A stretch of DNA of 5,706 nucleotides, taken from the IMG/VR virus record IMGVR_UViG_2690316184_000001, positions 1-5,706 of that record; one strand, given 5' to 3'. The position numbers and the translations under genes were made by a program. The stretch comes from a virus (taxonomy: Duplodnaviria > Heunggongvirae > Uroviricota > Caudoviricetes). The notes under the pieces were generated by a model. That model saw only the letters and a list, made by a program, of their open reading frames with translations, did no database searches and had not been told where the DNA came from. Positions 1 through 5,706 of the stretch are shown here, piece after piece (position 1 is the stretch's first letter; each line of letters starts with the position of its first letter).

Positions 1-58
1 AGCGGGCTTGTAATGGGTTAAGTGATAACAGATGTCTGGAAATATAGGGGCAAATCCA
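1..58 (+). mobile_element. Right terminal end of an IS2-like (IS3-family) insertion sequence; the element body lies beyond the left edge of the window
   Basis: Positions 18-58 (TTAAGTGATAACAGATGTCTGGAAATATAGGGGCAAATCCA) match the IS2 right inverted repeat as I recall it. Lambda int homology on the - strand stops exactly at 59, directly abutting the repeat end. Only 58 bp are visible, so identity rests on the terminal repeat alone. Confidence 0.65.
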
Positions 59-208
59 CTGTATAGCTTCAGTGATTGCGATTCGCCTGTCTCGGCCTAA
101 TCCAAACTCTTTACCCGTCCTTGGGTCCCTGTAGCAGTAATATCCATTGTTTCTTATATAAAGGTTAGGGGGTAAATCCCGGCGCTCATGACTTCGCCTT
201 CTTCCCAT
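59..208 (-). pseudogene. int: Integrase Int, 5' fragment only (codons 1-50), truncated by the IS insertion
   Basis: The - strand translation from ATG at 208..206 reads MGRRRSHERRDLPPNLYIRNNGYYCYRDPRTGKEFGLGRDRRIAITEAIQ, the lambda Int N-terminus as I recall it. The start lies 23 bp inside the 3' end of xis, as in lambda. After codon 50 the sequence becomes the IS2-like terminal repeat. Confidence 0.85.
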
Positions 209-404
209 TTCTGATCCTCTTCAAAAGGCTACCTGTTACTGGTCGATTTAAGTCAACCTTTACCGCTGATTCGTGGAACAGATACTCTCTTCCATCCTTA
301 ACCGGAGGAGGGAATATCCTGCACTCGCGTACCCATCGACGAACTGTTTCAAGGCTTCTTGGGCGTCGCTGGCGTGCGTTCCACTCCTGAAGTGTCAAGT
401 ACAT
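186..404 (-). CDS. xis: Excisionase Xis (72 aa)
   Basis: Six-frame ORF 186..404 (-) translates to MYLTLQEWNARQRRPRSLETVRRWVRECRIFPPPVKDGREYLFHESAVKVDLNRPVTG..LLKRIRNGKKAKS, essentially lambda Xis from memory. The classic 23-bp xis/int overlap is present. Confidence 0.95.
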   Translation of the reverse strand: MYLTLQEWNARQRRPRSLETVRRWVRECRIFPPPVKDGREYLFHESAVKVDLNRPVTGSLLKRIRNGKKAKS

Positions 405-431
405 CGCAAAGTCTCCGCAATTACACGCAAG
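390..431 (-). promoter_or_regulatory. pI promoter region with CII activator site (TTGC-N6-TTGC) overlapping the xis start codon
   Basis: The - strand reads TTGCGTGTAATTGCGGAGACTTTGCGATGTACTTGACAC. Direct repeats TTGC (430..427) and TTGC (420..417) are separated by 6 nt, the CII recognition architecture. The xis ATG (404..402) falls in the -10 region, consistent with the known pI transcript that makes Int but not Xis. Confidence 0.65.
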
Positions 432-452
432 AAAAAACCGCCATCAGGCGGC
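432..452 (-). terminator. Intrinsic-terminator-like hairpin on the - strand, immediately upstream of the pI CII site
   Basis: The - strand transcript reads G-CCGCC-UGAU-GGCGG-UUUUUU: a 5-bp all-GC stem, 4-nt loop and U6 tract. The short stem limits confidence. Confidence 0.4.
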
Positions 453-699
453 TTGGTGTTCTTTCAGTTCTTCAATTCGAATATTGGTTACGTCTGCATG
501 TGCTATCTGCGCCCACAGCATCCAGTGGTCATAGCAGTCGCTGATGTTCTCGGCTTCGATAACTCTGTTGAATGGTTCTCCATTCCATTCACCTGTAACT
601 CGGAAGTGCATTTATCATCGCCATAAAACAAAACTCGCCGTAGCGAGTTCAGATAAAAGAAATCCCCGCGAGTGCGAGGATAGTTACTTGTTCATATTA

Positions 700-981
700 T
701 TAATCGTCAATGTATTTTGAGCATTGTGGGCAATCATCGATCCCACAATACGATTCATATGCATCCTTTATTGCGTCGCGGGCTTCAGTAAGAGTATTGA
801 ATAAGTTGCAGCTATTATCTTTTTGATATAGGTAAGTTCCTAATTTATAAGCAGAAGAAGCATCATTTCCGCTGTCTAAAATTACATCGTTATGGATTCT
901 GCACCTTGCAAGAACTCCTGATCCCATAAGGGTCTGCATAGCCCATTGCTCTTGATCTTCACACAAATCATGAATGCTCAT
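700..981 (-). CDS. ea8.5: Ea8.5-like small Cys-rich protein (93 aa from ATG at 981)
   Basis: ORF 700..999 (-); the preferred start is ATG 981..979, preceded by GAGAGGTGTTGAA (SD-like GAGG). The 93-aa length and the 295-bp spacing to xis both match lambda ea8.5 as I recall the reference coordinates. The C-terminus is Cys-rich (CGIDDCPQC), consistent with a small zinc-binding protein. Confidence 0.7.
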   Translation of the reverse strand: MSIHDLCEDQEQWAMQTLMGSGVLARCRIHNDVILDSGNDASSAYKLGTYLYQKDNSCNLFNTLTEARDAIKDAYESYCGIDDCPQCSKYIDD

Positions 982-1080
982 TTCAACACCTCTCTTCACG
1001 TTTCACACACGTTAAGATTAACAGTGTTTTTACATGCTTTGGGAGATTTATTTTATAAAAACTCTTTTAATACAAATAGA

Positions 1081-1100
1081 TATAATAGTTCACTATTATA
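1081..1100. repeat. Perfect inverted repeat TATAATAG-N4-CTATTATA overlapping the stop codon of the DUF550/DUF551 gene, inside an AT-rich intergenic spacer (982..1095)
   Basis: Arms 1081-1088 and 1093-1100 are exact reverse complements. The stem would be all A/T, so it is a weak RNA hairpin; a protein-binding palindrome or a recombination-junction relic is equally possible. Confidence 0.5.
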
Positions 1101-1893
1101 GCTCCTTTAATCGAGGCGGTTCTGGTAGAGGCATCCAGTGGGTTACACCGCCAATTGGCTCATCGTCGTCGTACTCCAATGCGGCTATATAGAACCCGTC
1201 ACGACGAGAATAAGAAATCCCGGACATTACAATGCCATCCGAAACAACAATAATGTCACCCGTTTCTTTCGGCATTCGCTCACTACAGCTTATCCAACCA
1301 TCCGGAGTCACCGGAAGCGAGAACGGCAGCACATCTCTGTGAACAAGTTTTTGCTGTGACAGGTTATCCAGAACTTTCTGTACTGCTGCATCACCGAATA
1401 CACCAAGCGCATCTGCCATAACTCCTACAACCTGATAAGCCTCAGCGCATACCGTGGATAAACCATCCGGAATTACCGGAGAGTTGCCGGGTTCTTTAAT
1501 GTGCAAGCGAGGCTCACCATCTTTTGGTTCAGGCCACTGGCGCTCCATGTTGATCTTCAATTTATCTTCCATAGCAGCGGTAATTTCAGCATCGCTGATG
1601 CCAGCACGGCGCTGTGCATCCCACAACAGGAAATGCATATCAGCCCACTCGCTGAGATCGTCTGGTTCGGCTGCGGCTTCCAGAGCCTCTTTTGAGAGGT
1701 GTTTCAGTGGACCAATGGGGCCAACGCAGCCAAATGTGGAGTCAGACCATTTGGCATGCTCGTGGCGAATCAGTTCGCGTTCCAGTGATGCCAGTGCAAT
1801 TCGTGCCAGTTCCATTTGTTCGCCACGAGTAAGCCCGTTTTCAAGCGGATTTTTAATGAACAATTCAATACGTTCTTTGGTAATAGTGGTCAT
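1096..1893 (-). CDS. Two-domain phage protein: N-terminal MazG-like all-alpha NTP pyrophosphohydrolase (DUF550 type, dATP/dGTP pyrophosphohydrolase family) plus C-terminal DUF551-type domain (265 aa)
   Basis: ORF 1096..1893 (-), ATG 1893..1891 preceded by AAGGACTAACAA (SD AAGGA). The N-terminal half carries the MazG-type acidic motif EALEAAAE...EWADMHFLLWD. The C-terminus ends ...GGVTHWMPLPEPP, the signature I associate with DUF551. Assignment is from motif recall, not a search. Confidence 0.6.
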   Translation of the reverse strand: MTTITKERIELFIKNPLENGLTRGEQMELARIALASLERELIRHEHAKWSDSTFGCVGPIGPLKHLSKEALEAAAEPDDLSEWADMHFLLWDAQRRAGISDAEITAAMEDKLKINMERQWPEPKDGEPRLHIKEPGNSPVIPDGLSTVCAEAYQVVGVMADALGVFGDAAVQKVLDNLSQQKLVHRDVLPFSLPVTPDGWISCSERMPKETGDIIVVSDGIVMSGISYSRRDGFYIAALEYDDDEPIGGVTHWMPLPEPPRLKEL

Positions 1894-1903
1894 TTGTTAG
1901 TCC

Positions 1904-2659
1904 TTAAACTGCTAGTTGCAATTGCATTTCAAAGCGGTCGCGTTGTTCACAATACGCAAGAGAACCAGGGCTATTGTGTGCCTCAATCCGTTCTACCATT
2001 AATGCTGCGCGTGTCTCTTTACTTGCAGGTGCATAAGCCCCAGACCAGGCTTTATCAATACCGATGTTTCGAGCGACGTTCGTACTATCTGCGCTGGCTA
2101 AGGGTAATTTTGTGAATATCAGCGGATTTAACATGCGCAATCCATGTAGTTTCGTAACCGGCTGACCATGCCCATCAACAATGTGACGAATCAGGTCTTT
2201 CATTCTGGCTACCGCAAGAGTTGGGCGCTTTACGTCATAGTCGCCACAACTACCGATAGCCACTCGCGGAAACTCATTGCACAAATGAATAAATCGCGCG
2301 TCACTTTCATTCATGTGCCACACTGGAACGCCAGCTAGTTTTCCGTGAGGCCACTCATTCAGAAGCGCATCATTTTCCTCCTCTCCGCCATCAATAATAT
2401 CCGGGATAATGGCAAAATCGAATCCTGGGTGATTCTTCCAGCGAGCAACAAACTCGTAGTAATCGCTCCAGTCGATTTTGTTTTTGCCAGCTGCTTTCCA
2501 GGCGGTGAATGCACCGTTGTCCAGCGCGAACGACTGACAGTATTCAGCCGCGAGATTGATCTGGCCTGAATGCGCAAAACTGATAAACGCATGTCGCCCT
2601 TTCCATGCTCTCATTGCGCACGTATCAGGAGTAATAGGCCCACCGTGGTAGTGAATCAT
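1904..2659 (-). CDS. tRNA-guanine-transglycosylase-fold protein lacking the Zn subdomain; candidate DpdA-like DNA 7-deazaguanine transglycosylase (251 aa)
   Basis: ORF 1904..2701 (-); the preferred start is ATG 2659..2657, preceded by AAAGGAGAGTGAG (SD AGGAGA), one nt after the upstream gene's stop. Three motifs resemble the TGT catalytic core: ALDNGAF (cf. TGT LTDSGGFQ), GFDFAIIPDII (cf. GSDIVMIFDEC) and ADSTNVARNIG (cf. FDCVMPTRNARNG, nucleophile Asp). There is no C-terminal CxCxxC...H zinc motif. Function is inferred from these motifs only. Confidence 0.5.
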   Translation of the reverse strand: MIHYHGGPITPDTCAMRAWKGRHAFISFAHSGQINLAAEYCQSFALDNGAFTAWKAAGKNKIDWSDYYEFVARWKNHPGFDFAIIPDIIDGGEEENDALLNEWPHGKLAGVPVWHMNESDARFIHLCNEFPRVAIGSCGDYDVKRPTLAVARMKDLIRHIVDGHGQPVTKLHGLRMLNPLIFTKLPLASADSTNVARNIGIDKAWSGAYAPASKETRAALMVERIEAHNSPGSLAYCEQRDRFEMQLQLAV

Positions 2660-2660
2660 C

Positions 2661-3068
2661 TCACTCTCCTTTGATGCGAATGCCAGTAGCGCGGATTGCA
2701 TCGATGACTTCAGAAACTTTGTATGCCATTACCGTTTGGTAATCATCGTGAAAATCTGTTCGATGAAGCATGCTGCTACGTTCCGGGAGCAGTATTTCCC
2801 GCGCTTCCAGTTCTGCAATGCGCTTTTTTGCTGCTTCCAGTTCATCCAGTAATTCCAGCACGGTAGCCGGATTAGCCTTGGCAACAAAATCCCGGACTGG
2901 CTTACAATCAATCTCCGCAATGGGTTGATTCGATGTGTAGCCATGCTGTCTTGTATAACTACCGTGACGAATAACGAAAAAATCACCATTTATTTTTTTA
3001 GCCTGCCACTTATCTTCACCGGCTTTCTCTGCCGCTTCACGCAGTGCCTGAGAGTTAATTTCGCTCAC
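2661..3068 (-). CDS. Ea22-like family protein (135 aa), shorter than the 182-aa lambda Ea22
   Basis: ORF 2661..3068 (-). The ATG (3068..3066) overlaps the orf73 stop (ATGA coupling). The N-terminus MSEINSQALREAAEKA and a coiled-coil-like stretch LELLDELEAAKKRIAELEAR resemble prophage proteins annotated ead/Ea22-like. The gene occupies the position of ea22 in the lambda gene order. Confidence 0.55.
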   Translation of the reverse strand: MSEINSQALREAAEKAGEDKWQAKKINGDFFVIRHGSYTRQHGYTSNQPIAEIDCKPVRDFVAKANPATVLELLDELEAAKKRIAELEAREILLPERSSMLHRTDFHDDYQTVMAYKVSEVIDAIRATGIRIKGE

Positions 3069-3286
3069 TTCGAACCTCTCTGTTTACTGATAAGCTCCAG
3101 ATCCTCCTGGCAACTTGCACAAGTCCGACAACCCTGAACGACCAGGCGTCTTCGTTCATCTATCGGATCGCCACACTCACAACAATGAGTGGCAGATACA
3201 GTCTGGTAGTTCAGACGACGCATTTTTATTGCTGTGTTGCGCTGTAATTCTTCAATTTCTGATGCTGAATCAATGATGTCTGCCAT
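3065..3286 (-). CDS. orf73: TraR/DksA-family C4 zinc-finger protein (73 aa), lambda Orf73-like
   Basis: ORF 3065..3286 (-), MADIIDSASEIEELQRNTAIKMRRLNYQTVSATHCCECGDPIDERRRLVVQGCRTCASCQEDLELISKQRGSK. It has two Cys pairs (C-C-E-C ... C-R-T-C) about 17 residues apart, and the 73-aa size and position match lambda orf73, a known TraR homolog. Confidence 0.75.
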   Translation of the reverse strand: MADIIDSASEIEELQRNTAIKMRRLNYQTVSATHCCECGDPIDERRRLVVQGCRTCASCQEDLELISKQRGSK

Positions 3287-3341
3287 CTTCCATTAATCCC
3301 TGAATTGTTGGTTAATACGCTTGAGGGTGAATGCGAATAAT

Positions 3342-3363
3342 AAAAAAGGAGCCTGTAGCTCCC
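3342..3363 (-). terminator. Intrinsic-terminator-like hairpin between the orf61-region ORF and orf73
   Basis: The - strand transcript reads G-GGAGC-UACAG-GCUCC-UUUUUU-AUUAUU: a 5-6 bp GC-rich stem, 5-nt loop and U6 tract. Confidence 0.5.
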
Positions 3364-3384
3364 TGATGATTTTGCTTTTCATGT

Positions 3385-3666
3385 TCATCGTTCCTTAAAG
3401 ACGCCGTTTAACATGCCGATTGCCAGGCTTAAATGAGTCGGTGTGAATCCCATCAGCGTTACCGTTTCGCGGTGCTTCTTCAGTACGCTACGGCAAATGT
3501 CATCGACGTTTTTATCCGGAAACTGCTGTCTGGCTTTTTTGATTTCAGAATTAGCCTGACGGGCAATGCTGCGAAGGGCGTTTTCCTGCTGAGGTGTCAT
3601 TGAACAAGTCCCATGTCGGCAAGCATAAGCACACAGAATATGAAGCCCGCTGCCAGAAAAATGCAT
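3385..3666 (-). CDS. Small pL-operon protein in the lambda orf61 position; start codon uncertain (ATG 3666 gives 93 aa, ATG 3600 gives 71 aa starting MTPQQENALR...)
   Basis: ORF 3385..3666 (-). The internal ATG at 3600..3598 overlaps the stop of a 27-codon hydrophobic ORF (ATGA), suggesting the shorter form may be the translated one. The frame that lambda annotates as orf61 (by my coordinate recall) hits TGA at 3669..3667 here, so the gene structure may differ from the reference. Confidence 0.55.
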   Translation of the reverse strand: MHFSGSGLHILCAYACRHGTCSMTPQQENALRSIARQANSEIKKARQQFPDKNVDDICRSVLKKHRETVTLMGFTPTHLSLAIGMLNGVFKER

Positions 3667-3676
3667 TCAGTGGTTG

Positions 3677-3868
3677 TCATACCTGGTCTCTCTCATCTGC
3701 TTCTGCTTTCGCCACCATCATTTCCAGCTTTTGTGAAAGGGATGCGGCTAACGTGTGAAATTCTTCGTCTGTTTCTACTGGTATTGGCACAAACCTGACT
3801 CCAATTTGAGCGAGGCTATGTGCCATCTCGATACTCGTTCTTAACTCAACGGGAGATGCTTTGTGCAT
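3677..3868 (-). CDS. orf63: Lambda orf63-like small protein (63 aa)
   Basis: ATG 3868..3866, translation [63 protein letters not shown]. It is 192 bp, the same length as lambda orf63, with a 28-bp overlap with orf60a as in lambda. The frame is open further upstream to ATG 3883, so the start is not certain. Confidence 0.7.
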   Translation of the reverse strand: MHKASPVELRTSIEMAHSLAQIGVRFVPIPVETDEEFHTLAASLSQKLEMMVAKAEADERDQV

Positions 3869-4026
3869 ACAGCCCCCCCCCATTTATTATTTATCTCCTC
3901 AGCCAGCCGCTGTGCTTTCAGGGGATTTCGGATTACAGAAAGGCCGGGAAATACCCAGCCTCGCTTTGTAACGGAGTAGACGAAAGTGATTGCGCCTACC
4001 CGGATATTATCGTGAGGATGCGTCAT
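3841..4026 (-). CDS. orf60a: Lambda orf60a-like small protein (61 aa here; 60 aa in reference lambda by my recollection)
   Basis: ORF 3841..4032 (-); the preferred ATG is 4026..4024, which overlaps the exo stop (ATGA) as in lambda. Translation is [61 protein letters not shown]. Confidence 0.7.
3873..3881. repeat. Homopolymer tract C9 (G9 on the coding strand) inside orf60a, just upstream of the orf63 start
   Basis: Nine consecutive C at 3873-3881, read directly. The tract encodes the W-G-G of orf60a and doubles as a G-rich SD for orf63. Confidence 0.9.
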
Positions 4027-4703
4027 CGCCATTGCTCCCCAAATACAAAACCAATTTCAGCCAGTGCCTCGTCCATTTTTTCGATGAACTCCGGCACCAT
4101 CTCGTCAAAACTCGCCATGTACTTTTCATTCCGCTCAATCACGACATAATGCAGGCCTTCACGCTTCATGCGCGGGTCATAGTTGGCAAAGTACCAGGCA
4201 TCTTTTCGCGTCACCCACATGCTGTACTGCACCTGGGCCATGTAAGCCGATTTTATTGCCTCGAAACCACCGAGCCGGAATTTCATGAAATCCCGGGAGG
4301 TAAACGGGCATTTCAGTTCAAGGCCGTTGCCGTCACTGCATAAACCATCGGGAGAGCAGGCGGTGCGCATATTTTCGTCGCGATAGATGATCGGGGATTC
4401 AGTAATATTCACGCCGGAAGTGAATTCAAACAGGGTTCTGGCGTCGTTCTCGTACTGTTTTCCCCAGGCCAGCGCCTTAGCATTAACTTCCGGAGCCACA
4501 CCGGTGCAAACCTCAGCCAGCAGGGTGTGGAAGTAGGACATTTTCATGTCAGGCCACTTCTTTCCTGAGCGGGGCTTTGCTATCACGTTGTGAACTTCTG
4601 AAGCGGTGATGACGCCGAGCCGTAATTTGTGCCATGCATCATCCCCCTGTTCGACAGCTCTCACGTCGATCCCGGTACGCTGCAGGATAATGTCCGGTGT
4701 CAT
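4023..4703 (-). CDS. exo: Lambda exonuclease (Red alpha, Exo), 226 aa, apparently intact
   Basis: ORF 4023..4703 (-), [65 protein letters not shown]...GFVFGEQWR. This is full-length lambda Exo from memory. The ATG overlaps the bet stop (GCATGA). Confidence 0.97.
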
Positions 4704-4899
4704 GCTGCCACCTTCTGCTCAGTGGCTTTCTGTTTAAGGAATCCAAGAGCTTTCACTGCTTCGGCCTGTGTCAGTTCTGACGATGCGCGAATGTCGCGGC
4801 GAAATATCTGGGAACAGAGCGGCAATAAGTCGTCATCCCATGTTTTATCCAGGGCGATCAGCAGAGTGTTAATCTCCTGCATGGTTTCATCGTTAAGGG
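4700..4899 (-). pseudogene. bet: bet (Red beta) 3' remnant: only the last ~66 codons remain, and no in-frame ATG precedes the internal Met at 4882
   Basis: The - strand frame reads ...[67 protein letters not shown], the Beta C-terminus. Upstream of about 4899 the sequence switches to the gam 5' end, and an in-frame stop lies at 4927..4925. Confidence 0.85.
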
Positions 4900-5045
4900 G
4901 GGTAGTGAATGCTTTTGCTTGATCTCAGTTTCAGTATTAATATCCATTTTTTATAAGCGTCGACGGCCTCACGAAACATCTTTTCATCGCCAATAAAAGT
5001 GGCGATAGTGAATTTAGTCTGGATAGCCATAAGTGTTTGATCCAT
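4893..5045 (-). CDS. kil: Kil (host cell-division inhibitor), 50 aa here with the C-terminus altered by the deletion junction (47 aa in lambda by recollection)
   Basis: ATG 5045..5043 preceded by CAGGAGTCCCAAAAA (SD AGGAG). Translation is MDQTLMAIQTKFTIATFIGDEKMFREAVDAYKKWILILKLRSSKSIHYPP*. There is a 32-bp overlap with the cIII 3' end, as in lambda. The 92-aa six-frame ORF 4893..5171 is this frame extended upstream through cIII in another frame. Confidence 0.8.
   Translation of the reverse strand: MDQTLMAIQTKFTIATFIGDEKMFREAVDAYKKWILILKLRSSKSIHYPP
4903..4947 (-). pseudogene. gam: gam 5' remnant: first 15 codons (MDINTETEIKQKHSL), then out-of-frame fusion to bet 3' sequence (29-codon ORF in total)
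   Basis: ATG 4947..4945; the - strand reads ATG GAT ATT AAT ACT GAA ACT GAG ATC AAG CAA AAG CAT TCA CTA, then CCCCCC TTAACGATGAAACC, which is bet-derived. The gam frame terminates at TGA after 29 codons. Confidence 0.85.
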
Positions 5046-5178
5046 TTTTTGGGACTCCTGGCTGATTAAGTATGTCGATAAGGCGTTTCCATCCGTCACG
5101 TAATTTACGGGTGATTCGTTCAAGTAAAGATTCGGAAGGGCAGCCAGCAACAGGCCACCCTGCAATGGCATATTGCAT
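5014..5178 (-). CDS. cIII: CIII (FtsH inhibitor that stabilises CII), 54 aa
   Basis: ATG 5178..5176 preceded by AAGGAGCACACC (SD AAGGAG, 6-nt spacing). Translation is MQYAIAGWPVAGCPSESLLERITRKLRDGWKRLIDILNQPGVPKNGSNTYGYPD*, lambda CIII from memory. It is absent from the six-frame track because it is shorter than 60 aa. Confidence 0.9.
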   Translation of the reverse strand: MQYAIAGWPVAGCPSESLLERITRKLRDGWKRLIDILNQPGVPKNGSNTYGYPD

Positions 5179-5204
5179 GGTGTGCTCCTTATTTATACAT
5201 AACG

Positions 5205-5227
5205 AAAAACGCCTCGAGTGAAGCGTT
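5205..5227 (-). terminator. Intrinsic-terminator-like hairpin between ea10 and cIII (at the position I would expect lambda tL3; name tentative)
   Basis: The - strand transcript reads AACGCUUC-ACUC-GAGGCGUU-UUUCG: about an 8-bp stem with one G.U pair and a 4-nt loop, with the run of U beginning inside the 3' arm. Confidence 0.4.
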
Positions 5228-5250
5228 ATTGGTATGCGGTAACGCCGCGC

Positions 5251-5619
5251 TCAGGCGGCTTTGATAGTCATATCATCTGGATCAAATATTCCTGATGTAT
5301 CGATATCGGTAATTCTTATTCCTTCGCTACCATCCATTGGAGGCCATCCTTCCTGACCATTTCCATCATTCCAGTCGAACTCACACACAACACCATATGC
5401 ATTTAAGTCGCTTGAAATTGCTATAAGCAGAGCATGTTGCGCCAGCATGATTAATACAGCATTTAATACAGAGCCGTGTTTATTGAGTCGGTATTCAGAG
5501 TCTGACCAGAAATTATTAATCTGGTGAAGTTTTTCCTCTGTCATTACGTCATGATCGATTTCAATTTCTATTGATGCTTTCCAGTCGTAATCAATGATGT
5601 ATTTTTTGATGTTTGACAT
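5251..5619 (-). CDS. ea10: Ea10-like protein (122 aa)
   Basis: ORF 5251..5619 (-), ATG preceded by TATGAGGATATGAATAG (SD GAGGA). The 122-aa length and the 72-bp spacing to cIII both match lambda ea10 by my coordinate recall. Confidence 0.8.
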   Translation of the reverse strand: MSNIKKYIIDYDWKASIEIEIDHDVMTEEKLHQINNFWSDSEYRLNKHGSVLNAVLIMLAQHALLIAISSDLNAYGVVCEFDWNDGNGQEGWPPMDGSEGIRITDIDTSGIFDPDDMTIKAA

Positions 5620-5639
5620 CTATTCATATCCTCATAGAT

Positions 5640-5667
5640 AAAAAATCGCCCTCACACTGGAGGGCAA
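5640..5667 (-). terminator. Strong intrinsic terminator on the - strand upstream of ea10 (lambda tL2-region terminator; name tentative)
   Basis: The - strand transcript reads UU-GCCCUC-CAGUGU-GAGGGC-GA-UUUUUU: a 6-bp GC stem, extendable to 8 bp with U.G and U-A pairs, a 6-nt loop, and U6 directly after the stem. Confidence 0.6.
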
Positions 5668-5706
5668 AGAAGATTTCCAATAATCAGAACAAGTCGGCTC
5701 CTGTTT

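Follow-up and report, generated by a model that had tools for sequence, protein, structure and literature searches.

Why are some genes of a defective lambda-like prophage broken while their neighbours stay open? The question is raised by a 5,706-nt stretch of DNA (the window; positions 1 to 5,706 of IMG/VR virus record IMGVR_UViG_2690316184_000001), for which the original prediction was that the excision and recombination genes int, bet and gam had been damaged and the genes that act on the host had been kept for accessory functions. Our favoured answer, to which we assign a probability of about 0.7, is that the window belongs to a young remnant, passed on clonally, of a prophage that died through a few large deletions, and that the contrast between broken and intact genes results incidentally from two accidents.

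In a lambda-like prophage of E. coli, the window covers the stretch from int to ea10 in the leftward early (pL) arm. It is 100% identical to positions 9177-14882 of L012, a contig of assembly GCA_016820375.1 whose gene table spans the entire remnant, and the host lineage is avian/ST23-type E. coli, APEC O78 included. The prophage occupies attB-lambda between the gal and bio operons, with ybhC adjoining int and ybhB-bioA at the opposite end (L001, L002 and L012). Nucleotide identity to lambda is 97-98% across 58% of the window, the gene order int-xis-...-exo-bet-gam-kil-cIII-ea10 is colinear with lambda, and all genes lie on the minus strand (Table 1). Breakpoints and ORFs were compared with those of L003, an apparently complete relative that contains bet, gam, sieB, repressor, cro, cII, O, P, nin, Q, lysis genes, terminase and portal.

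Table 1. Features of the window, listed by position, with the matches on which each assignment rests (fractions are identical residues).
Feature	Position	Strand	Match or remark
IS2 (IS3 family), right terminal 58 bp, ending ...GGGGCAAATCCA	1-58		matches annotated IS2 of APEC O78
Target site duplication CTGTA, 5 bp	59-63		flanks both IS2 ends in L012; single copy in uninterrupted L003 int
int, first 50 codons only (part of arm-binding domain)	59-208	-	ATG at 208; MGRRR...EAIQ, then IS2 sequence
xis (excisionase), intact, 72 aa	186-404	-	72/72 L003, 71/72 lambda
Terminator-like hairpins	435-454, 631-650, 662-681, 3346-3364, 5208-5227	-
orf55 (lambda p35 homologue), intact	444-611	-	55/55 L003, 53/55 lambda; PHROG 676
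ea8.5-family gene, intact, 93 aa	700-981	-	PF20735 E = 9e-16; 93/93 L003
MazG-like dATP/dGTP pyrophosphohydrolase domain + DUF551, 265-aa ORF	1096-1893	-	PF04447 E = 1e-41, PF04448 E = 7e-14; 264/265 L003
TGT-superfamily, DpdA-like protein, 251 aa	1904-2659	-	PHROG 887 E = 3e-101
ead/Ea22-like gene, 135 aa	2661-3068	-	PF13935 E = 3e-17; 134/135 L003
orf73, TraR/DksA-type C4 zinc-finger protein	3065-3286	-	PF01258 E = 4e-9; 73/73 L003
71-aa ORF, partly related to lambda orf61	3385-3600	-	PHROG 303
27-aa hydrophobic ORF (MTTTECIFLAAGFIFCVLMLADMGLVQ)	3597-3680	-	4-bp overlap on each side; called as gene in L009
orf63 (DUF1382), intact	3677-3868	-	PF07131 E = 3e-31; 63/63 L003
orf60a (DUF1317), open	3841-4032	-	PF07026; 9-C homopolymer at 3873-3881
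exo (lambda exonuclease), intact, 226 aa	4023-4703	-	221/226 lambda
bet remnant, 60-aa ORF = Bet residues 202-261 (C-terminal domain)	4700-4882	-	60/60 L003 Bet
kil, 50 aa: all 47 lambda residues + YPP	4893-5045	-	stop codon made by deletion junction
960-bp deletion junction	4894-4897 (break 4895/4896)		TT microhomology; minus strand reads ...CACTACCCCCCTT, then AACGATG
gam remnant, about 17 first codons, out-of-frame fusion to bet sequence	4896-4947	-	fusion ORF MDINTETEIKQKHSLPPLTMKPCRRLTLC, then stop
cIII, 54 aa	5014-5178	-	54/54, identical to lambda
ea10 (DUF2528), intact	5251-5619	-	PF10800 E = 8e-47; 121/122 lambda
Terminator-like hairpin upstream of ea10	5646-5667	-	one of six in the window

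Outside the window, L012 carries further lesions. Compared to L003, L012 and the strains with the same remnant have an 8.7-kb deletion that brings ral up against the middle of Q; sieB, N, nutL/pL, the repressor gene, cro, cII, O, P, ren, the nin genes and half of Q are lost. A second deletion, shared by L012, L001 and L002, fuses the large terminase gene to a fragment of J, so that the head and tail genes are gone. Having lost its replication, late-gene activation and morphogenesis functions, the prophage is cryptic and non-viable, which agrees with the original prediction of a cryptic prophage; an intact, inducible phage, which would have spoken against it, is not what the rest of the contig holds. 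The classical host-beneficial genes (repressor/immunity and sieB) are deleted, whereas lysis genes, Nu1 and the tail fibre gene remain outside the window.

Within the window, int, bet and gam are broken as predicted, and two events account for all of this damage. One is a single 960-bp deletion relative to L003, which takes out gam from codon 18 onwards and the first 197 codons of bet, leaving gam nt 1-53 joined to bet nt 592-786. The ORF of the bet remnant overlaps the start of exo by 4 bp and corresponds to the Bet C-terminal fragments in crystal structures 6m9k and 8tfu. The same junction occurs in at least 21 complete genomes, from poultry, pigs, dogs and humans. A search for the junction pattern among species-representative genomes gave no match; the source contig was located through the 60-aa Bet remnant. 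The other event is the insertion of IS2 into int. The full element in L012 is 1331 bp long, runs from TAGACTGG... to ...CAAATCCA, and has terminal inverted repeats and a 5-bp target site duplication; IS2 copies in relatives are annotated as an IS2-family transposase. Because the remaining 3' part of int is found beyond the 1331-bp IS2 in L012, the insertion is a simple one. With int broken after codon 50, the prophage is predicted to be unable to excise; xis is intact.

From xis through ea10, the remaining 15 ORFs are all open and 97-100% identical to their L003 counterparts, and they include every gene that had been listed as acting on the host (kil, cIII, orf73, ea8.5, ea10, exo and the DpdA-like/MazG-like pair). 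The translational coupling that had been noted among them holds insofar as the 4-bp ATGA-type overlaps are real, but these overlaps are the native lambda arrangement. Kil has 50 residues in the window, compared to 54 in the parent and 47 in lambda. PGAP splits the MazG-like ORF into a pseudogene and a shorter CDS; this is not a lesion, as the same 265-aa ORF is present in the apparently complete L003. Similarly, the C-run of orf60a adds 3 nt in the window and stays in frame.

Some of these products can be assigned with more detail. The MazG-like and DUF551 domains score 141 and 52.8 bits (Pfam cutoffs 23 and 22, respectively), and orf73 scores 54 bits against TIGR02419, which is under the cutoff. 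The DpdA-like protein has no sequence match in Pfam, NCBIfam or PDB beside its PHROG 887 match. It was found to have the TGT-type (beta/alpha)8 barrel fold, and D47-N48-G49, D87 and D191, which are invariant across 24 homologues, are candidate catalytic residues. Its nearest known system is phage DpdA (DNA 7-deazaguanine transglycosylase), in the "DpdA-only" group of Hutinet et al. 2019 (PMC6884629). The DpdA-like/MazG-like pair is also present in the apparently complete relative and in isolated temperate phages, which suggests that it serves the growth of the phage itself.

On the coding strand of the window we found no sigma-70-like promoter. Given the loss of pL, nutL and N and the several terminator-like hairpins along the arm, we infer that native expression of kil, cIII and the rest of the arm has been lost, which would be the simplest reason why a lethal gene such as kil is tolerated intact. 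Some transcription of the arm may still arise from a strong promoter-like site in the Q remnant (GTGACA-18-TATAAT, 11/12), which points towards ral, ea10, cIII and kil.

Had the remnant been domesticated, the host would be keeping it for kil, cIII, orf73, ea8.5, ea10 and the DpdA-like/MazG-like pair, with purifying selection on these genes and decay of the excision and recombination genes. For other defective prophages this is an established idea (PMC6379469; Bobay et al. 2014, cited in PMC6379469), every ORF named is open, a possible promoter lies upstream of ral, and the remnant is found in 21 complete genomes, although this last observation is also compatible with simple clonal inheritance. 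Nevertheless, we consider domestication improbable. The damage had been read as sorted by function, yet about 42% of the parental sequence from int to ea10 belongs to mobility and recombination genes, and the probability that both events would fall in them, computed from parental gene coordinates with two independent events assumed, is about 0.18; with only two events in the window this is not significant, and functional sorting is unsupported. Two genes of the same functional class as the broken ones, xis and exo, are intact, as are the lysis genes and Nu1, and immunity and sieB are deleted. Nor is there a signal of purifying selection, as the lineage has not diverged: L012 and L002 are 99.993% identical over 14,638 bp (1 difference), and about 1 substitution in 14.6 kb among carriers leaves nothing for dN/dS analysis. 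Because the remnant is 99.99% identical between strains, its intact ORFs reflect recency rather than purifying selection; the near-zero divergence removes the evidence for selection and is no proof of neutrality. Together with the loss of promoter and antiterminator (pL, N and nutL), the terminators, and the presence of the DpdA-like/MazG-like pair in the apparently complete relative and isolated phages, this speaks against the claim that the genes were kept for accessory functions.

The relatives tell the same story, in that their lesions do not avoid the "accessory" genes. Among those with the same remnant, IS2 lies inside ea8.5 in L001, L005, L008 and L013, IS1 lies inside lom in L002, and the orf60a C-run is 8 C, a frameshift, in L005 and L013; int is intact in all five. 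Cousin prophages at the same att site (L006, L007, L009 and L010) have lost kil, cIII, ea10 and ral and kept exo through the DpdA-like gene. The IS2/int junction itself was found in no complete E. coli genome, including the 21 with the same gam-bet deletion. The window also matches APEC O78 and 15 other genomes at 100% in three pieces; this is a joining artefact, as those genomes have IS2 in ea8.5 and an intact int. Because the large deletions are common to all lineage members examined and IS2/int occurs only in the source assembly, the insertion is private to one assembly and later than the death of the prophage. This order of events leaves hardly any room for the reverse sequence, in which IS2 would have entered int first and trapped the prophage, with decay afterwards, even though grounding via integrase mutation is a published scenario (PMC6379469).

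In our preferred reading of the window as part of a young, accidentally broken remnant, a few large deletions (8.7-kb ral-Q, terminase-J and 960-bp gam-bet) killed the prophage, and the remnant is inherited clonally. Later, in a single strain, IS2 transposed into int at codon 50 and left a 5-bp target duplication. The arm genes would have stayed intact because the remnant is too young for point mutations, because no further large event struck in the source strain, and because loss of the promoter and antiterminator would have rendered the arm near neutral and an intact kil tolerable. The anatomy, the order of events, the clonality and the lesions of the relatives can be read from the sequences, whereas lack of expression, neutrality and any selective part played by gam loss are inferences.

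The 960-bp deletion is, in addition, probably due in part to a mechanistic bias, because its bet end is a recurrent breakpoint. This endpoint, T591/A592, falls within CCGGTTAACG, where the Bet C-terminal domain begins. It is shared by five junction types, whose left partners are gam nt 53, gam nt 307, antisense P, antisense ninG and antisense Q; every junction has 1-2 nt of T microhomology and retains the Bet C-terminal-domain ORF and exo. A single origin is ruled out by the right-hand 875-nt haplotypes, which differ by 22-30 nt and each match a different intact haplotype; the junctions would go back to at least three, and probably five, independent events. No other internal bet breakpoint was seen in 119 viral contigs, scans for reciprocal junctions or IS insertions at the site gave only SNP or allelic variants, and a literature search for a known hotspot at this site found nothing relevant. 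We tentatively suggest, at a little under even odds, that in lambdoid prophages T591/A592 acts as a hotspot for deletions, site-specific and one-sided. Such a hotspot would imply a defined DNA end or break, and candidate causes are cleavage by a sequence-specific nuclease or in a terminase-like manner, an event linked to a transposase or to IS excision, and strong stalling of replication. An end of this kind would give rise to prophage derivatives without gam/bet time and again. A stall at a hairpin has no specific support: although GCCGGA-N12-TCCGGT has the junction at its 3' base, the 1.9-kb gam-bet-exo region contains 12 hairpins that are at least as stable, none with recurrent breakpoints. 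A blunt HpaI-type cut (GTT^AAC) is weakened as well; the kept part starts with AAC, yet each of the five left partners has T as its last nucleotide, which indicates use of microhomology rather than blunt joining.

Selection could also have acted on this deletion, possibly while the phage was still viable and with the preferred bet site supplying the breakpoint. Loss of Gam (and Red) might have been advantageous, and the deletion thereby enriched, through Spi-minus-like escape from Gam-sensing abortive defences (P2 Old, Gabija) or through removal of a toxic RecBCD inhibitor. Gam-deficient lambda escapes P2 Old (PMC12445682), Gabija is reported to restrict phages encoding RecBCD antagonists (PMC12407980), and two of the junction types (a and b, in 21 and 7 complete genomes) are independent small deletions that remove only gam and bet sequence. 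However, 3139 of the 3319 bet-carrying genomes have full-length bet, so bet loss is not generally favoured. The remaining three types (c, d and e) delete large regions at the cost of the phage's viability and hence are not explicable by phage escape, and selection leaves the nucleotide-exact identity of the endpoints unexplained. We regard positive selection on the gam-bet deletion as possible and rather unlikely; it would be compatible with accidental breakage for the remainder of the window.

As a finding on prophage decay, this is a textbook case, and both the sequence and its pseudogenes are already annotated in public genomes. Its lesson is that a pattern of broken mobility genes and intact host-acting genes in one window is by itself no evidence of domestication; such claims also require knowing how old the remnant is, which lesions sister lineages carry and in what state the promoters are. 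More could hang on the bet breakpoint. Should a defined DNA break or end underlie it, lambdoid prophages would have a natural, sequence-specific way of losing gam, bet and, in some cases, the entire immunity-replication region, and the site would offer a handle on illegitimate recombination in vivo.

Similar to the lambda red-gam deletion (Spi-minus) derivatives, the window has a small deletion that removes gam and bet and spares the neighbouring genes. Unlike these derivatives, it keeps exo and belongs to a prophage whose replication and morphogenesis genes are missing too. The arm as a whole resembles the lambda pL operon from ea10 to int in gene order, orientation, overlaps and attachment site, with identical cIII, all 47 Kil residues, and near-identical Ea10 (121/122), Exo (221/226) and Xis (71/72). 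It differs in that the ea22-ea8.5 segment is replaced by ea22-like, DpdA-like, MazG-like/DUF551 and divergent ea8.5 (38/93) genes, orf61 is replaced by the 71-aa and 27-aa ORFs, gam and bet are deleted, and int is interrupted. As a defective lambdoid remnant with IS insertions, large internal deletions and vertical inheritance, it is like the cryptic ("grounded") E. coli prophages DLP12, Rac and Qin (Ramisetty and Sudhakari 2019, PMC6379469). Those K-12 remnants are old and widely shared, whereas this one is very young, with about 0 substitutions among carriers, so that dN/dS and long-persistence tests of domestication do not apply to it; and, in contrast to the grounded-prophage model, its int lesion is not the grounding event.

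The coding capacity of the window lies entirely on the minus strand, and its genes follow the order of the lambda leftward early operon: ea10, cIII, kil, (gam, bet), exo, orf60a, orf63, small ORFs, orf73, an ea22-like gene, two non-lambda genes, ea8.5, orf55, xis and int. By megablast it is 97–98% identical to lambda across the 58% of the window that the two share, and 99–100% identical to prophages that occupy the lambda attachment site of many E. coli genomes. Via a 60-aa bet-derived ORF we reached the source contig, L012 (JACVWQ010000001.1, assembly GCA_016820375.1), in which positions 9177–14882, reverse strand, match the whole window with zero mismatches. APEC O78 and 15 other best matches, each '100% in 3 pieces', were rejected as the source: their int is intact and an IS2 sits inside ea8.5, and the apparent identity is an artefact that arose because window positions 1–58 matched this other IS2 copy.

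The original prediction described int, bet and gam as broken, which is true, but the damage comes down to two events only, an IS2 insertion and a 960-bp deletion. Window positions 1–58 are the right end of an IS2, and L012 carries the complete 1331-bp element between two int halves, bordered by a 5-bp duplication (CTGTA); the int lesion is a simple IS2 transposition into codon 50. Compared to the intact locus of an apparently complete relative (L003, strain S1-CAM-01-C, 99.2% identical), 960 bp are absent from gam nt 53 to bet nt 592, and the junction reads ...CACTACCCCCCTT/AACGATG..., with TT shared. What is left of gam is 17 codons in an out-of-frame fusion, and what is left of bet is a 60-aa ORF corresponding to Bet 202–261. 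The junction itself makes the kil stop codon (CCT/TAA, window 4893–4897), which trims 4 codons off the parental Kil; the protein is 50 aa here versus 54 in the parent and 47 in lambda, with 47/47 lambda residues kept.

The claim that host-acting genes remain open also holds, as all ORFs other than int, gam and bet are uninterrupted and 97–100% identical to their L003 counterparts. The Pfam assignments of ea8.5, Ead/Ea22, zf-dskA_traR, DUF1382, DUF1317 and DUF2528 hold, and the MazG-like protein combines PF04447 (dATP/dGTP pyrophosphohydrolase, E = 1e-41) with DUF551. Its 265-aa ORF (window 1096–1893), continuous and of equal length in the apparently complete relative, is broken by NCBI annotation into a 'pseudogene' fragment and a shorter CDS of varying length. 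In orf60a, a run of 9 C (window 3873–3881) stands where lambda and L003 have CCCCTCG, and two strains that share the remnant (L005, L013) have 8 C and thus a frameshift; this variation reflects either a hypermutable tract or sequencing error in those two assemblies. Between orf63 and a 71-aa ORF, overlapping each of them by 4 bp, lies a strongly hydrophobic 27-aa ORF (MTTTECIFLAAGFIFCVLMLADMGLVQ, window 3597–3680), which has no family match and is called as a gene by one pipeline only.

The source contig bears out the view that the prophage is cryptic: where an intact, inducible prophage had been the alternative, we found further lesions. An 8.7-kb deletion, found in L012 and likewise in the L001 and L002 loci of other strains, fuses the region just past ral to mid-Q; the corresponding stretch of the intact relative carries sieB, the N region, repressor, cro, cII, O, P, ren and the nin genes. 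The large terminase gene is cut short and joined to a J fragment, and head genes and most tail genes are therefore lost. pL, nutL and N are likewise deleted. Lambda genes beyond tL1 depend on N for antitermination, and a repressorless prophage could not maintain an expressed kil. No sigma-70-like site was found on the coding strand within the window, which has 6 terminator-like hairpins on that strand. Given lambda biology, the intact kil most likely survives through silence, because there is no pL, nutL or N to drive it. A near-consensus sigma-70-like site (GTGACA-18-TATAAT, 11/12) does occur at L012 8688–8717 (+), ~460 bp outside the window's right end. It is antisense within the Q remnant, directed towards ral, ea10, cIII and kil, and terminator-like hairpins intervene between it and the arm genes. 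This predicted promoter could allow some residual transcription across the arm.

Selective retention for accessory functions, the explanation first offered for this pattern, is not supported, and sister and cousin prophages partly contradict it. Using coordinates from the L003 gene table, mobility and recombination genes make up ~42% of the parental int-to-ea10 stretch; the probability that both events fell in them by chance is ~0.18, though two events are too few to carry statistics. The functional split is unclean, with xis and exo intact in the window and the holin, endolysin, Rz, Nu1 and tail-fibre genes intact outside it, and the repressor and sieB, classical host-beneficial genes, are deleted. 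L012 and L002 show ~1 difference in 14,638 bp, and the gam-bet junction is common to 21 complete genomes; the remnant is very young. With zero substitutions, evidence of purifying selection is absent, and intact ORFs are the neutral prediction.

The IS2/int junction is absent from species-representative genomes in our junction scan and from complete genomes, and int is intact in the relatives examined, which instead carry IS2 in ea8.5 (L001, L005, L008, L013) or IS1 in lom (L002). The int lesion is private and late, and within this lineage insertions strike 'accessory' genes at least as often. Four cousins at the same att site (L006, L007, L009, L010) have a ninG-to-bet deletion that removed kil, cIII, ea10 and ral and kept exo through the DpdA-like gene. 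Comparison with related prophages shows lesions reaching 'accessory' genes (ea8.5, lom and orf60a, plus those four in the cousins). In a different lambdoid prophage (L004, GCA_900449145.1), bet, exo, xis and orf73 carry frameshifts, and adjoining host genes (torS-like) are fragmented too, which suggests a poor assembly rather than true decay. Bobay et al. (2014), as cited in a later paper, reportedly described domestication of prophage remnants. That integrase loss 'grounds' a prophage, together with domestication of remnants, is an idea already published in that later paper (PMC6379469). The feature is an ordinary, young, already annotated prophage remnant.

The sole item that might merit more work is a deletion hotspot at bet nt 591/592 that is site-specific and one-sided: every bet-truncated locus is broken at this one bet position, and the opposite side varies. 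The five junction types each keep AACGATGAAACC... from A592 inside CCGGTTAACG, every left partner ends in T, and the T microhomology is 1–2 nt on different haplotype backgrounds (window 4894–4897; also loci L006, L011, L070, L102 and L139–L144).

Junctions that end at bet nt 591/592, by left end and number of complete E. coli genomes
Junction type	Left end	Complete E. coli genomes
a (the window's type)	gam nt 53	21
b	gam nt 307	7
c	antisense ninG	6
d	antisense Q	0
e	antisense P	7

Among 119 viral contigs selected solely for carrying bet nt 592–620, bet is full in 105 and cut by contig ends in 12; the 2 internal truncations are both at nt 591/592. The right-hand haplotypes of types a/b, c and d differ from one another by 22–30 nt, each matching a different intact haplotype exactly or almost exactly, so these events are independent. 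The bet remnant ORF matches the C-terminal fragment of Bet that has been crystallised (6m9k, 8tfu), which is the Exo- and SSB-binding domain. Natural bet alleles (L145–L171) share their sequence as far as ...CCGGTTA and part from bet nt ~592 onward (GTTAGC or GTTAGT, followed by a C-terminal-domain sequence that differs); the hotspot thus falls on a mosaic boundary that separates the N- and C-terminal portions of bet.

A hairpin gains no specific support as the cause: a small one ends exactly at T590, but 12 equal or better hairpins in the region have no recurrent breaks. A blunt GTT^AAC cut matches the position, yet is at odds with the constant T microhomology. Scans found no reciprocal junction or IS insertion at bet nt 591/592. 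The most economical reading is that microhomology joins a defined DNA end or break located here. Lambda without Gam evades P2 Old (PMC12445682), and Gam-sensing defences may enrich for Gam loss, but in 3139/3319 bet-carrying genomes bet is full length.

The DpdA-like/MazG-like pair also occurs in L003 and is therefore normal phage cargo. DpdA-like homologues are found in the viable temperate phages SPN3UB and SfI, and at 35% identity in Salmonella phage 7-11, which belongs to a published group encoding only DpdA that may use host preQ0 (PMC6884629). The DpdA-like label is reasonable at superfamily level, and the 'anti-restriction' role is putative. The family has >7,700 members, every one annotated 'hypothetical', at 65–93% identity across Enterobacterales, Vibrio and Aeromonas. 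For the protein encoded at window 1904–2659, the top structural match, ranked ahead of DpdA itself, is Cap10, the type IV CBASS component that is TGT-like and links a deazaguanine derivative to a protein.
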